This document shows, in pieces, positions 18,001 to 21,000 of a stretch of 64,000 nucleotides of DNA (position 1 is the first letter of the stretch; every line of letters starts with the position of its first letter). The position numbers are program-made. Source of the DNA: Candidatus Bathyarchaeia archaeon (GTDB taxonomy: Archaea; Thermoproteota; Bathyarchaeia; 40CM-2-53-6); assembly GCA_049513715.1 (NCBI GenBank), contig JBEKVV010000004.1, forward strand, positions 128,001-192,000, read 5' to 3'.

Positions 18001-21000
18001 TCCGCCCTCCGGGGACTGGATCCAGTACTCCAACCTCTGAGCACCAACCAAGCCACGATTCGGGCTTTCTGGTGTTTTGCTGGCGGCTTGGCCGTAGCCT
18101 GTGATTCTTGTCGCGTGATCTTGGTTGGTGTTGTTCTTGAGGAAGAGTGTTCTTCGTATCTGGATTCGACAGCGTGAACTAGATCTGTTGGATGAATTGG
18201 CGAAACGCCTCGGGTTGCCCTCTAGAAGCCGACTTACAAACATCGCTCTGCAGTTCTTTTTCGAGCTAAACCATGAAGATCTCCCTGCTGCGGGGCAGAG
18301 GCGCAGGGTCAAGATATTGTTGGATCCATCAATCAAAGAAGAACTGGACGAGCTCTCCACATGCTTGCTCATTCGAAAAGCTTACCTGACGAAGATCGCG
18401 CTCAACGAATTCACACGTCGTTACCGGGCGACTTCTGTTCAACGAGATCATGAACCCTAGCCGTACGTTAGGCCGCCTAACACAGTTTCGATTCCAGCCA
18501 CCTTTCGTCAAGGGAATGGATCAGGTCGGGGTTATCTGAGATGGCAAATGAGTCGCATAAAAGCGACGATCCAGAAGTTGACATTCAGCAGGTAATCTGC
18601 AAATTAGTGCTAGCTCTGAAGCGATTGGAGGGCTACAATCCGGTTCTAGATCTGCCGCTCATTGAGGAGGTAGCCCGCAGCGCGGCTTTCATCAGACTCG
18701 GCGAAAGCTTCCTGATCAATCCGAAATGCTCTCCGGGAACGTACGCCAGTATTTCTGATGGGATAGCGAAGCATGCGTCCAGAATGCGCCAAGCCATGAA
18801 GGAGCTGGCAGCTACGAGAGCGGAGCGAATGCGCTACCAAACTGCAACGGCACAAGCCGCGCAGGTCAAAGAGATCGTGGATAAGATCATTCACCAGGAG
18901 AATGAGCATGACAGCGCGTGAAAGATTCCGAGAAGAGGTAAGTAAGGCTAAGTGGAATGCGGCCTACTTTGCCGAAATCTTCCTCTCTCTGAGACCGTTT
19001 CCATACCAAGTCGACTTTCTCAGGGACGATGGAAAAGAGATTGCCGCGGCATGCGGTCGCCAGGTTGGAAAGACCACCCTAGCCGCAATCAAGGGTTTGC
19101 ATTTTGCCTTCTTCCATCCAGACGTGACTGTGCTGATCATCAGCTCCACGCTCCGCCAAAGCATGATCCTGTTCGCAAAGATCCGCTCAATGACAGAGTC
19201 GAACCCAATTCTCCGAATGAAAGTGAAGAACTCGAACCGGACAACAATTGAATTCGATCACGGCAGCCGAATCGTGGCGTTGCCCTGCGGACCGACCGGT
19301 TACAGCCTACGAGGCCACACCGCGGACATGATCATCCTAGATGAAGCGAACTTCGTGCCGGAAGAGATTGTGGACGGCGTCGTAAGGCCCATGCTCATCG
19401 CCAAACCCAACTCAAGACTCATCATGGTCTCCACACCTTGGACTCGAAACCATCCATTCTACCGAGCCATCTCTGAGAAGGGTCGAGGATTTCATGTCTA
19501 CAGATGGCCGACAAGCCTCAGCCCACTAGTCTCCGCGGAGAAGCTTCAAGCCGACCGCAACGCCCTCGACGCTCTCACATTCAGAAGAGAGTACGAAGCC
19601 CAGTTCGTCGAAGAAAACGATTCCTATTTCCCAACCCACCTCATCTCGCAGTGCGTAGACGGAAGCTATGAACTCCTGGAGGATCAGGACGTTCTCCAAA
19701 CCGAACACAAAGGCGTCTTTCACCTGGGCGTGGATTTTGGGAAGCGGGTTGACCACAGTGTCCTAGCTGTTCTTGAGGAATCCGCAGGCCGACTTCAACG
19801 CTTAGTCTATCTAAAACAGTTCCCGCTGCAAACAAATTACGCAACGGTAATCGGCTGGATTCGCCGCCTCAACGAGGGTTTCGGATTCGAGAGTGTAACC
19901 CTAGACCAGACAGGAGTCGGAGAAGCACCAGTCGAAGACGTGAAAACCTTCCTTCCAAACGCTGAAGGCGTCATTCTGACGAACAAGATGAAACTGGATA
20001 TTCTATCGAACCTGCAACTTCTCATGCAACATGAGAGGTTGAAGATACCGCTCGAAAAGACCATAATCACCCAGATCAACGAGCAGCAATACGAGATCAA
20101 TAAGACAGGGGAACTAATCTTCTCACACCCAACCCGATCACACGACGACAAACTCTGGGCTTTGGTTTTTTCAGCTTGGGGAGCCAGAAAACCACCTCGC
20201 CCAAGCTTCTTGCCAATAACCCGCTCCTTTGGACTAAGACCCTAACTGATCGAAATGATTGCCGGAACATGTAACGACTCAGCCGGTGACCACTTTGGGT
20301 CTATGGGCAATCTTGTCAGGATCGCTGATTCTCGGGTCTTGGAAAAGTTTAGGTAGTCTCACCCCTTGCTCGTGTGGTAGGGCCCGTAGCTCAGTCAGAT
20401 CCACGCAAAATGGATCCTAGATAGGTAGAGCATCGGAAACACCGTGCAATTCCACGGGTGTTGGTGATGCTTTTACCCTGGGTTTCTGGAACCTTAGGGA
20501 AGCCACCCGAAAAGACACCGCTTAACCGCGGTCTTGGGGAAGGGTCCCGGGTTCAAATCCCGGCGGGCCCGCCACCTTCACTGAGTGGCTGTACCATTTT
20601 CTTGATGCCAGCAGGACAAAGTCCTCCCGCGAGTAGCCACCATCAGTCTTACGTGAGCATATGCCAGGATTTTTTCTGGTTTGGCGTTTGGAGCGAGCTG
20701 TCGTCAAAGACACCGCTCCCTTGACCACACTAGAACAATTCCTCAGCCCGACTTGTATTCTGCAGCGCAGGGCCCGTAGTTTAGTCAAGGTGAGTCCGAC
20801 TGTTTTCGTACACTTTTAGTGGGTGAGTGGCGTGACTGAGCCTAGGCAACGCGGAAGGCTATCTCAGCGCAAAGTCTCTTTAGTAAATCCAAAAGCTAGT
20901 CGTTTCGGGTCTATTATGAGCCCGCAATTCATCCGCTCCAAAAGAGCTTCCAATCTTAGCAAATCCGTGGAGCTTGAGGCGTTCCTTGGTTCCTGCAGAA

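Follow-up and report, generated by a model that had tools for sequence, protein, structure and literature searches.

A mobile terminase cassette without virion genes in a Bathyarchaeia genome

Terminases are usually taken as a hallmark of viruses. In the window analyzed here, which comprises 64,000 nucleotides of contig JBEKVV010000004.1 (C4) from a Candidatus Bathyarchaeia archaeon, genes for the small and large terminase subunits (TerS and TerL) stand among host genes. What is a DNA-packaging enzyme doing in a chromosome that encodes no recognizable virion? The preliminary description favored a mobile packaging module, possibly domesticated, over a provirus. We find that the terminase genes belong to an intact, selected and mobile unit of 2-2.4 kb that is free of virion, integrase and replication genes. 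Such virion-free cassettes are common, under selection and moving in Bathyarchaeia, which is among the most abundant uncultured archaeal classes. Genomes, contigs of the genome under study (G000) and loci are denoted by the letters G, C and L.

The cassette and its borders

The window carries a 2.4-kb cassette as an insertion that separates degP from a tRNA gene (Table 1). The TerS-TerL pair recognized previously is present, but its supposed two-gene extent is not correct, because a gene for a tandem ribbon-helix-helix (RHH) protein forms a third member. Compared with the empty alleles of congeners, the whole insertion measures at most 2.54 kb. Its gene content is RHH, TerS and TerL only; integrase, primase and replication module are all absent. 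The site is empty in 14 of 19 congeners, in which the tRNA follows degP within about 250 bp.

Table 1. Cassette features and flanking features, in window positions
Feature	Position	Strand	Evidence or remark
degP-type protease, host, left flank	16894..17835	+	Pfam Trypsin_2 and PDZ; in 22/23 genus genomes
Left junction of insertion	17836..17866	.	Empty alleles L166, L168; occupied alleles L182, L183, L261
G-rich 75-bp motif	17867..17940	+	9 copies in this genome
Tandem RHH gene, 111 aa	18125..18460	+	PF01402 E 3.7e-4; PF12651 E 2e-3
Probable TerS, predicted helical oligomerization domain, 126 aa	18541..18921	+	Overlaps terL by 20 nt
TerL, 447 aa, ATPase and RNase H-like nuclease	18902..20245	+	
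Variable C-terminal tail of TerL	20195..20245	+	Resembles proviral TerL tails, same genus
Upstream region and multi-intron tRNA gene (20380-20575), right flank	20246..20575	+	Conserved beside degP in congeners
Separate 2-kb toxin-antitoxin island	20576..22590	.	ParE-like matches; neighbor, outside cassette

Neither ends nor shared flanks had been recognized earlier, and this view must be revised, because congeners preserve an empty site and the copies share homology only up to the terL stop codon, which is the right border of the mobile unit. On the left, the empty-allele sequence is kept to about 17845 and diverges beyond. A repeat search and allele comparison did not find a terminal repeat, target duplication or flanking repeat for the window cassette. 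The G-rich motif travels with the cassette in L182, L183 and L261 and, in degenerate form, in L134 and L186; the other eight copies in this genome have no adjoining terL. As a general element end this motif was rejected, since it is confined to the sub-clade of the window among 270 loci and is found in 0 of 22 congeners. By exact pattern it is absent from the genome_contigs and viral_contigs collections. Targeting of tRNA genes was likewise rejected as a rule, because few of about 90 loci have a T-loop motif at a distance of 500 bp or less from terL. The tRNA gene in the right flank is missed by ARAGORN and Rfam, and by eye probably encodes tRNA-Lys. Beyond it, the toxin-antitoxin island is bounded by a copy of the 3' part of the tRNA (22473-22590; 82-nt repeat at 96%). 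In contigs from four DNA runs, which are possibly the source of this DNA and are blind to rare excision, cassette depth equals flank depth and no joint skips the cassette.

TerL matches PF03237 (E 4e-17), PF17289 (E 7.5e-6) and phrog_2 (E 8e-42), and its nearest solved chains are 5tge, 5m1q, 3ezk and 4zni. The ATPase and nuclease motifs are intact, as originally described: Walker A (residues 51-59), Walker B (D147/E148), the coupling motif (175-179), and nuclease residues D278, D335 and D415/D416 are all present. Judged by its sequence, the protein fits the large terminase subunit of head-tailed viruses, with an N-terminal ATPase and a C-terminal RNase H-like nuclease triad. The core of TerL is conserved, but its tails vary widely and match those of proviral TerLs; the less frequent YS variant is shared by an orphan copy and a provirus of G041, and the tail match comes from two genomes. 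This tail may be the segment that docks on a portal. In phage SPP1, the C-terminal domain of TerL binds the portal, and TerS and TerL are enough for pac cleavage (PMC3592435).

TerS had been so named by position only. For the window gene this is no longer the case, given several further lines of evidence, each weak. The protein, which has 183 homolog clusters, matches PF25673 (Terminase_7) at E 0.016, below the cut-off, and resembles Atlas Terminase_4 clusters at 0.92. Its model has three helices (pLDDT 89); in Foldseek, four of the top seven viral matches are TerS (E 0.14-0.20, none significant), and a fold search against solved chains returned generic helical bundles only (best Z 10.2), which is uninformative. 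A predicted TerS-TerL complex scores 0.53 against 0.00 for the best control, but this weak support may reflect likeness to solved terminases, and among benchmark pairs the passes at 0.60 or under comprise 18 of 157 solved complexes and both of the two mismatches, among 215, that pass. Between runs, at least 91% of contacts are the same, and partner pLDDT is at least 73. We infer that the RHH gene encodes the DNA-binding part of the small terminase; in L134 (227 aa) and L184 (272 aa), RHH and the TerS domain form a single protein, and the dN/dS of the window RHH gene relative to L183 is 0.26.

Terminase genes and virion genes across genomes

Four terminase loci without virion genes were reported previously for this genome, and all exist at their places. 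They are not, however, copies of one orphan pair. The C2 gene (C2:23.5-25.0 kb, 485 aa) belongs to an integrase element, C11:1.3-2.2 kb (304 aa) holds TerS and a naturally split TerL of which only the ATPase half is present, and C3:520.7-521.2 kb is a pseudogene, a broken split-type nuclease gene with three stops. Further pieces are a terL 3' end (C8:65.8 kb), a solo RHH-TerS (C5:25.0-25.6 kb) and 5' fragments at C1:282.7-283.0 kb and C1:874.0 kb.

The C2 element (C2:20275-27909, 7.6 kb) has an 8-bp direct repeat at both ends and interrupts the 5' end of a methyltransferase gene; all eight congeners with this gene carry it without interruption. In a PHROG scan of 12 C2 proteins, nothing was recognized beyond TerL, a regulator and, weakly, an integrase (phrog_5127, E 0.026), and the 407-aa protein of the element resembles PF27228 clusters at 0.97-0.98. 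Its predicted gene content is PICI-like: integrase, att repeat, regulators and a replication gene in less than 20 kb, with no virion genes. A search of genome_contigs for relatives of its TerL gave 44 stretches that matched the pattern, none of which was confirmed, and three element proteins compared with the integrase element of G030 showed no homology at E 1e-3.

The reported absence of portal and capsid genes from this genome is upheld by PHROG, protein and six-frame profile searches. Models phrog_12, phrog_1650, phrog_9232 and phrog_10, each positive in 2-8 of 14 control genomes, have no match at E≤1. Proteins of eight related viral contigs reveal no portal or capsid, nor do 22 structural proteins (best E 0.026), and portal and capsid profiles run with --max on six frames reach E 0.89 and 0.29 at best. 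The portal and HK97 capsid expected of a Caudoviricetes provirus thus do not accompany the window cassette.

This situation is common. In the host family, TerL occurs in 22 of 44 genomes and portal and capsid in three, where the matches of G041 and G043 (both profiles) and of G020 (capsid profile) arise by construction. The other 19 TerL-positive genomes, without portal and capsid, include G045, G046 and G047, which have 3-5 contigs each. Among 251 genomes of the class, TerL is found in 118, portal in 56 and capsid in 63; these are profile counts, since single-protein searches for portal and capsid (1 and 0 of 59) are less sensitive and overstate the excess. Portal or capsid without TerL occurs in 12 genomes. 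Neither portal nor capsid is matched in 55 of the 118 TerL-positive genomes, so that terL by itself identifies proviruses poorly in these genomes, whatever the function of the cassette. Metagenome relatives of the cassette have virion genes nearby in 0 of 80 loci (35 with at least 3 kb downstream).

Mobility, selection and ancestry

Recurrence at unrelated chromosomal sites, which had been proposed before, is evident as discrete homology of 2.0-2.4 kb between L144 and L146 (2069 bp, 90.6%), L137 and L140 (2387 bp, 88%), L135 and L138 (2183 bp, 81%), and L002 and L148 (2373 bp, 83%). Exchange between species has been recent. Synonymous divergence (dS) of terL is 0.18-0.19 between the window cassette and L182/L183 and 0.028 between L182 and L183, whereas degP is synonymously saturated in the same hosts. 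The near-identity of L182 and L183, which are metagenome contigs and could be chimeric, runs from inside terS beyond the terL stop to the contig end. In both, a 5' stub of the tRNA remains on the upstream side of the cassette; on the downstream side, L182 has the complete tRNA.

Orphan terL genes show dN/dS of 0.06-0.28 in 29 comparisons (window TerL, 0.09-0.25), and the ATPase-only cassette of C11 and G046 shows 0.21. Copies at the degP site persist down to 63-66% identity with dN/dS of about 0.1. Stops or frameshifts disrupt some copies (L010, L015, L038, L069-L071). Of 97 loci, 11 have same-strand terL 3' remnants on the downstream side, and displaced same-strand 5' remnants occur upstream in 0-1 (Fisher p 0.006-0.049, with loci that are not independent); this polarity is expected if DNA enters starting at the cassette. 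Cargo between terL and the remnants is mostly ParE, VapBC, MNT-HEPN and AbiE. Of 40 upstream flanks compared over 2.5 kb, 9 contain toxin-antitoxin genes, as do 8 of 49 downstream flanks, so that no cargo polarity is seen. The corresponding figure for background windows is 14 of 1113; this background derives from a single genome, and the queries had been drawn from regions of this kind. The data did not support a recombination or pac hotspot shared by all terL genes: relative synonymous divergence averages 0.9-1.2 in all ten bins of 30 disjoint pairs.

The clade of the window contains 72 distinct ATPase sequences, none from a virus or provirus. FastTree support is 0.37 for the whole clade and 0.99 and 1.0 for its two halves; a quick tree gives 100 for nine full-length rows. 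IMG/VR contains no TerS of the clade, and the best viral TerL is 45% identical. Orphan clades nest among viruses, or contain them, and terL is strongly mosaic. Proviruses of G188 and G135 end in terS-terL-ABC/GNAT, 15-20 kb from the portal, and G233, G248 and G104 keep only the last 4-5 provirus genes. On the basis of these intermediates and of the orphan clades nested among viruses, sequence comparisons indicate that the cassettes descend from provirus ends.

The earlier choice of a mobile packaging module over a provirus is therefore supported by discrete homology, recent cross-species exchange, purifying selection in loci that have no virion genes, and a large clade with no viral member. 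It needs qualification: mobility applies to the window cassette, descent from provirus ends was found, and clade L036-L044, which has a fixed chromosomal site and dN/dS of 0.06-0.10, looks like domestication rather than mobility.

Possible functions and relation to known systems

We consider it somewhat less than an even chance (roughly 45%) that the cassette is a minimal helper-dependent element for DNA packaging and transduction, derived from a provirus end. RHH and TerS would recognize a pac-like site that lies within the cassette or immediately upstream, with procapsids provided by a head-tail virus or by a resident provirus. TerL would cut at that site and dock on the helper portal via its C-terminal region, and, as happens in lateral transduction, a headful would be packaged that begins with the cassette and continues into the host DNA downstream. 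After delivery to a recipient, recombination would take place between the fragment and either a cassette already present or the downstream chromosome, and the opposite end would be joined illegitimately. The cassette would thereby be renewed and spread, downstream toxin-antitoxin cargo moved, and terL 3' remnants left. The C2 locus might be a larger version of this strategy with its own integrase and replication-type gene.

This packaging model is supported by the excess of TerL over virion genes, retention of both ATPase and nuclease, low dN/dS, homology at unrelated sites, cross-species transfer into the same site and remnant polarity, as well as by tail variation that matches proviral tails, the SPP1 precedent and, weakly, the predicted TerS-TerL complex. 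Against it count a search of the clade that found no conserved pac-like DNA motif and the lack of a shared synonymous dip along terL or of cargo polarity. An ATPase-only cassette under selection, which could not cut DNA alone, also counts against it, as do the absence of a helper provirus from this genome, the broken copies, the two-genome tail match and the possible chimerism of L182 and L183. Moreover, TerS resembles the P27 family, which is known mainly from cos-type phages without lateral transduction. With more reserve, we suggest that the cassettes might constitute a class of selfish element: a pac site and complete terminase of 2-2.4 kb that packages itself and downstream DNA into capsids of other viruses, exchanges the tail with which it docks on portals so as to follow its helpers, and functions as a gene transfer agent (GTA) that depends on helpers in about a fifth of Bathyarchaeia genomes. 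If the packaging model is true, the cassette would rank as the smallest type of virus satellite and would provide archaea with a means of directional chromosomal gene transfer.

Other functions can be imagined for the same genes. In an addiction or antiviral module, RHH-TerS would restrain the TerL nuclease, or the proteins would cut viral concatemers or jam portals, and spread would be passive with variable islands. The leading RHH gene, overlapping genes, gene-end borders and fixed-site clade L036-L044 agree with this idea, as do the neighboring toxin-antitoxin genes, in excess of background, and the ParE, VapBC, MNT-HEPN and AbiE cargo; tail diversity could equally reflect pursuit of viral portals. 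We nonetheless regard it as rather unlikely. A simple DNase toxin has no need of the full motor ATPase that is conserved, a nuclease-less version is conserved too, downstream-only remnants are left unexplained, and PADLOC 2.0, with a library dated 2023, matches none of six proteins. If correct, it would represent a new use of a viral motor. A transposon with the TerL nuclease as transposase would explain a discrete unit with many sites and solo ends, but we give it very little credence: terminal inverted repeats and target duplications are lacking, and the variable junctions, with 5' borders that differ between alleles and a 3' border that is merely a stop codon, largely refute it.

Alternatively, the cassettes could be functionless provirus ends left by deletions or first headfuls, with a selection signal inherited from viral ancestors or refreshed when the copies recombine with unsampled viruses. 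Many Bathyarchaeia proviruses have terS-terL at the far end (G188, G135), end-only copies exist (G233, G248, G104), and orphan clades nest with viruses. The mosaic terL and the many fragments and broken copies fit as well; binning can lose proviral contigs, and the class-wide excess is only about twofold. Yet this explanation too appears unlikely in view of the 72 ATPase sequences without a viral member, the metagenome loci without virion genes, the IMG/VR result, and the degP-site copies that persist to 63-66% identity under dN/dS of about 0.1. It is improbable that the terminase is a detached part of a dispersed GTA whose capsid and portal lie elsewhere, too divergent to detect. For Thaumarchaeota, a GTA-like nature was proposed for head-tail modules that lack replication genes (PMC6563490), and family f14 has TerL with an adjacent portal in most genomes. 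However, nothing is detected in this genome by the profiles that recover portal in 56 and capsid in 63 genomes of the class, and the cassette is patchy, multi-copy and site-changing, unlike a fixed GTA with its fixed head-tail cluster.

Among known systems, type II toxin-antitoxin loci share with the cassette an RHH gene that precedes a nuclease gene, borders at gene ends and the same variable regions, but the cassette keeps a full translocation ATPase and a predicted TerS ring domain. The head-tail viruses and proviruses of Bathyarchaeia (IMG/VR L074-L081; G041, G043, G020, G188, G135; 10.1101/2023.08.24.554615) have TerL proteins 36-45% identical. They are the source of the cassette genes, with shared C-terminal tails and an RHH-TerS fusion in the G041 provirus, but they carry portal, protease, capsid and tail genes, and none falls in the clade of the window.

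PICIs and SaPIs are packaged from their own pac site by a helper, and in such packaging and lateral transduction downstream chromosomal DNA and defense genes are moved (PMC12829572, PMC9618062); the cassette may resemble them, judging by its genes. The C2 element is like a PICI in size and in the order of integrase, regulators, replication-type gene and packaging genes. These islands are described there with a small terminase and the TerL of the helper, whereas the window cassette has both subunits. Integrase, att sites and primase or replication genes are missing from the window cassette, and its junctions vary between alleles. Capsid-forming cf-PICIs are helper-dependent and encode their own TerS, TerL, portal, protease and capsid, so that only tails are missing; the cassettes here lack every virion gene, including portal, protease and capsid. 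These cf-PICIs are mentioned in 10.1101/2025.02.15.638363.

A literature search, with most subscription papers and supplements outside its scope, found no description of a stand-alone or orphan terminase family, and NitKor-E1 of Ca. Nitrosopumilus koreensis AR1 as sole precedent. The 2019 paper on this element notes that terminase had not previously been found in non-viral mobile elements (PMC6563490). NitKor-E1 is likewise an archaeal chromosomal locus with TerS and TerL, no other head-tail gene and VapBC nearby, and it has a tyrosine integrase, like the C2 element and unlike the window type, which has none. It is a single case that this source calls enigmatic and probably a relic (PMC6563490), whereas the cassettes described here form a large family under selection.

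Cassette genes and insertion site

An intact TerL was claimed in the preliminary description, and the ORF concerned indeed encodes a complete TerL with every ATPase and nuclease motif present. The nearest solved chains are T4 gp17, 5tge, 5m1q and 4zni, the latter three being from Thermus headful phages. The two genes upstream (see table) encode an RHH protein and a 126-aa protein; in our reading, the former would be the DNA-binding part of TerS and the latter its ring domain. They are fused into a single protein at loci L134 and L184, and split TerLs, including that of the G041 provirus, are preceded by RHH-helical fusions. 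Four concordant lines weakly favor identification of the 126-aa protein as TerS. It matches Pfam Terminase_7 (E 0.016) and, at 0.92, Atlas clusters with Terminase_4; TerS makes up four of its top seven viral Foldseek matches (best E 0.14); and the predicted TerS-TerL complex scores 0.53 versus 0.00 for controls, which weakly supports the pairing.

Locations of the cassette and related features (C, contigs of G000, the genome under study; L, fetched loci)
Feature	Location	Description
Insertion	window 17836-20379 at most	
Tandem RHH gene	upstream of terL	111 aa
126-aa ORF	directly upstream of terL	20-nt overlap with terL
terL	window 18902-20245	
tRNA gene	window 20380-20575	multi-intron
Island	window 20576-22590	2 kb; more short tRNA-like ends at 20770, 21706, 22379
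LAGLIDADG gene	window 12838-13668	free-standing
G-rich repeat	window 17867-17940; C1:345.3, C2:82.2, C3:80.0, 327.4, 501.0, C6:3.2, C7:39.1, C8:9.7 kb	75 bp, intergenic
C2 element	C2:20275-27909	7.6 kb; inside first codons of a methyltransferase gene
Second homolog of C2 replication-type gene	C8:78.4-79.6 kb	
C2 integrase homologs	C1:383.8-384.7 kb; C5:85.7-86.6 kb	57%; 41%
Solo RHH-TerS gene, then RHH gene	L159:7984-8905 (C5:25 kb); L137:4894-5836	no TerL
Genes resembling a ubiquitin system by eye	L160:1825-5535 (C1:278-281 kb)	E1-like, E2-like, ubiquitin-like, JAMM protease
Host-like surface protein gene	viral contig L074:4223-8441	1318 aa; between terL and a terL 3'-end copy

The insertion was delimited by comparing the degP-tRNA site across genus genomes, 22 of 23 of which have degP. 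Among the 19 whose downstream region was fetched, the tRNA lies within ~250 bp of degP in 14, other inserts are present in five, and the cassette is found there in none. Genome G058 carries the cassette. When closely related cassettes occupy unrelated sites, their homology is confined to 2.0-2.4 kb and ends at the terL stop. The 5' junctions vary from allele to allele, and no terminal repeats or target duplications were found at cassettes.

The tRNA gene was missed by ARAGORN and Rfam, and its intron content varies among congeners. The island, which lacks an integrase, holds ParE-like and other small genes between this tRNA and a copy of the tRNA 3' part. Downstream of the same tRNA, genome G051 (L167) has a different integrated element, recognizable by an integrase and a 752-aa ORF. 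Free-standing LAGLIDADG genes also occur at L134, L180, L182 and L185, and in congeners several occupy the degP-tRNA site. The G-rich repeat, present at eight more places in G000, has no transposase nearby and is absent from 22 congeners; its C1 copy follows a tRNA-like 5' stub.

Virion genes and origin of the cassettes

The reported lack of portal and capsid genes in G000 (99.4% complete, 11 contigs) was upheld. Virion genes were not detected with four PHROG models, or with proteins of eight related viral contigs or 22 structural proteins as queries, and unfiltered portal and capsid profiles were also blank. Across 251 class genomes, these profiles (E<=1e-4) find portal in 56 and capsid in 63, and TerL (E<=1e-10) is found in 118; 55 genomes have TerL alone, 12 portal or capsid alone, and 63 both. 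The window's family has TerL in 22 of 44 genomes and portal plus capsid in three, which were among the profile contributors. The class-wide excess of TerL may be partly technical, because portal and capsid are less conserved than TerL, and because binning can drop proviruses. Genomes G045, G046 and G047, each with 3-5 contigs, 2-3 cassettes and no virion match, argue against a technical cause in the window's family.

A metagenome scan confirmed 297 relatives. The best 80 have no portal, capsid or tail match, with 3 kb available downstream in only 35 and upstream in 31, and their neighbors are host and toxin-antitoxin genes. TerS proteins of this clade form 183 clusters with no confirmed match in IMG/VR, and the closest TerL from a virus shows 45% identity. 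Among the 157 sequences of an ATPase-domain tree, 72 fall in the window group, none of them viral. Support for the entire group is 0.37, against 0.99 and 1.0 for the two halves, and a quick tree gives 100 for its nine full-length rows. One orphan group (terminase genes without virion genes; L036-L044, at one fixed site) is nested among viruses, and another contains virus L081.

Orphan terminases derive repeatedly from provirus ends, because proviruses of G188 and G135 terminate in terS-terL-ABC/GNAT, 15-20 kb away from portal, and G233, G248 and G104 retain only these end genes. Most other fetched loci hold terS-terL alone.

The G188 and G135 proviruses (L271-L274) and those of genus g71 have an inverted portal gene at the end opposite terS-terL-ABC/GNAT. 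No integrase or replication gene was seen in them by eye, and they could be GTA-like. Head-tail clusters of family f14 (L275, L276), in which TerL adjoins portal in 7 of 11 genomes, are a candidate domesticated gene transfer agent.

Movement, selection and interpretation

Cassettes of L182 and L183 occupy the window's site, with terL dS of 0.18-0.19 to the window and 0.028 mutually; degP of their hosts is synonymously saturated in both comparisons. Near-identity of these two loci starts inside terS and runs beyond the stop to the contig end. Many of 30 disjoint terL pairs are mosaic, without a common hotspot. The 97 de-duplicated loci compared (two skipped, viral contigs left out) offer 289 kb of downstream and 225 kb of upstream sequence. 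Eleven have same-strand terL 3' pieces on the downstream side; nine reach the stop, and 5' borders vary. Upstream, six matches to 5' pieces were found, of which two abut the cassette, three are inverted and one is probably flank. Such one-sided remnants are what one would expect from incoming DNA that begins at the cassette, uses a resident copy as its anchor and forms an illegitimate joint farther along. Mostly toxin-antitoxin genes separate terL from its 3' remnants. However, these genes are equally frequent on both sides of cassettes, which counts against this account of the remnants.

The last 15-20 residues of TerL are strongly variable, and the core is conserved. Tail variants are common to distant clades and to proviral TerLs of the genus. 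Orphan and provirus match in two genomes only: both have the rarer YS variant in G041, with differing codons, and the common IT variant in G043. The SPP1 TerL C-terminal domain binds portal, as likewise reported for T3, T4 and lambda (PMC3592435, accessible portion).

By the Nei-Gojobori method, dN/dS is 0.06-0.28 for orphan terL (29 comparisons), 0.05-0.24 for five virus-involved terL pairs and 0.06-0.49 for six host gene pairs. Values for the window against L182, L183 and L185 are 0.25, 0.24 and 0.11, and the G000-G058 comparison is near saturation. The catalytic motifs are retained in all but a few of 71 long TerL frames (Walker A is altered in L040); stops and frameshifts in some copies may be real or sequencing errors.

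We tentatively propose, with a probability of about 0.45, that the cassette would be packaged from its own pac site in dependence on a helper. This would explain why the complete motor is kept and why terminases outnumber virion genes, and would also account for cross-species exchange, polarity and tail variation. In lateral transduction, as described in the available part of PMC12829572, the first headful holds the prophage part from pac onward plus flanking chromosome; with terS-terL at the provirus end, that prophage part would be the cassette. Passive remnants refreshed by unsampled viruses would explain origin and mosaicism but leave the virus-free clade unexplained, and we consider them unlikely. 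An addiction or defence module, which we regard as unlikely, would explain cassette layout and neighborhood. These readings are not exclusive, because a capsid-hijacking cassette also lowers helper yield.

Other terminase loci and known systems

Of the four terminase loci previously counted in G000, those at C2, C11 and C3 do contain terminase genes, but they differ in type. The C2 element is bounded on each side by an 8-bp repeat and supplies a replacement gene start; the methyltransferase gene is uninterrupted in all eight congeners having it. Besides TerS and TerL, the element codes for a divergent tyrosine integrase, two regulators and a 407-aa protein that resembles a plasmid replication-type family, and it has three unknown ORFs. 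G030 has a similar but non-homologous integrase-TerL element. Homologs of the C2 replication-type gene and integrase (see table) suggest further small integrated elements in G000.

C11 carries RHH-TerS together with only the ATPase portion of a split TerL. The same unit recurs at a different site in G046 (dN/dS 0.18-0.23), and the end of the C11 unit gives a match to the ATPase gene in the G043 provirus. C3 holds a broken nuclease gene of split type, and additional pieces lie at C8, C1 and C5. Naturally split TerLs (ATPase gene plus nuclease gene) are conserved across proviruses and orphans (L144, L145, L146, L147, L149, L150 and others); in L144-L147 the two reading frames share 20-75 nt, which may reflect a programmed frameshift.

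Orphan terminases are not mentioned in the accessible portions of Bathyarchaeia virus papers. In the available excerpts, satellites of PMC9618062 carry TerS and depend on the helper's TerL, and archaeal satellites (10.1101/2025.02.15.638363; 10.64898/2026.08.12.739948) are described without terminase. The solo RHH-TerS gene (C5, L137), which is conserved in G045 (73% identity), is reminiscent of PICIs and their TerS-only strategy. For the cassette itself, the sole printed archaeal precedent that we found is NitKor-E1, as presented in the accessible part of PMC6563490.
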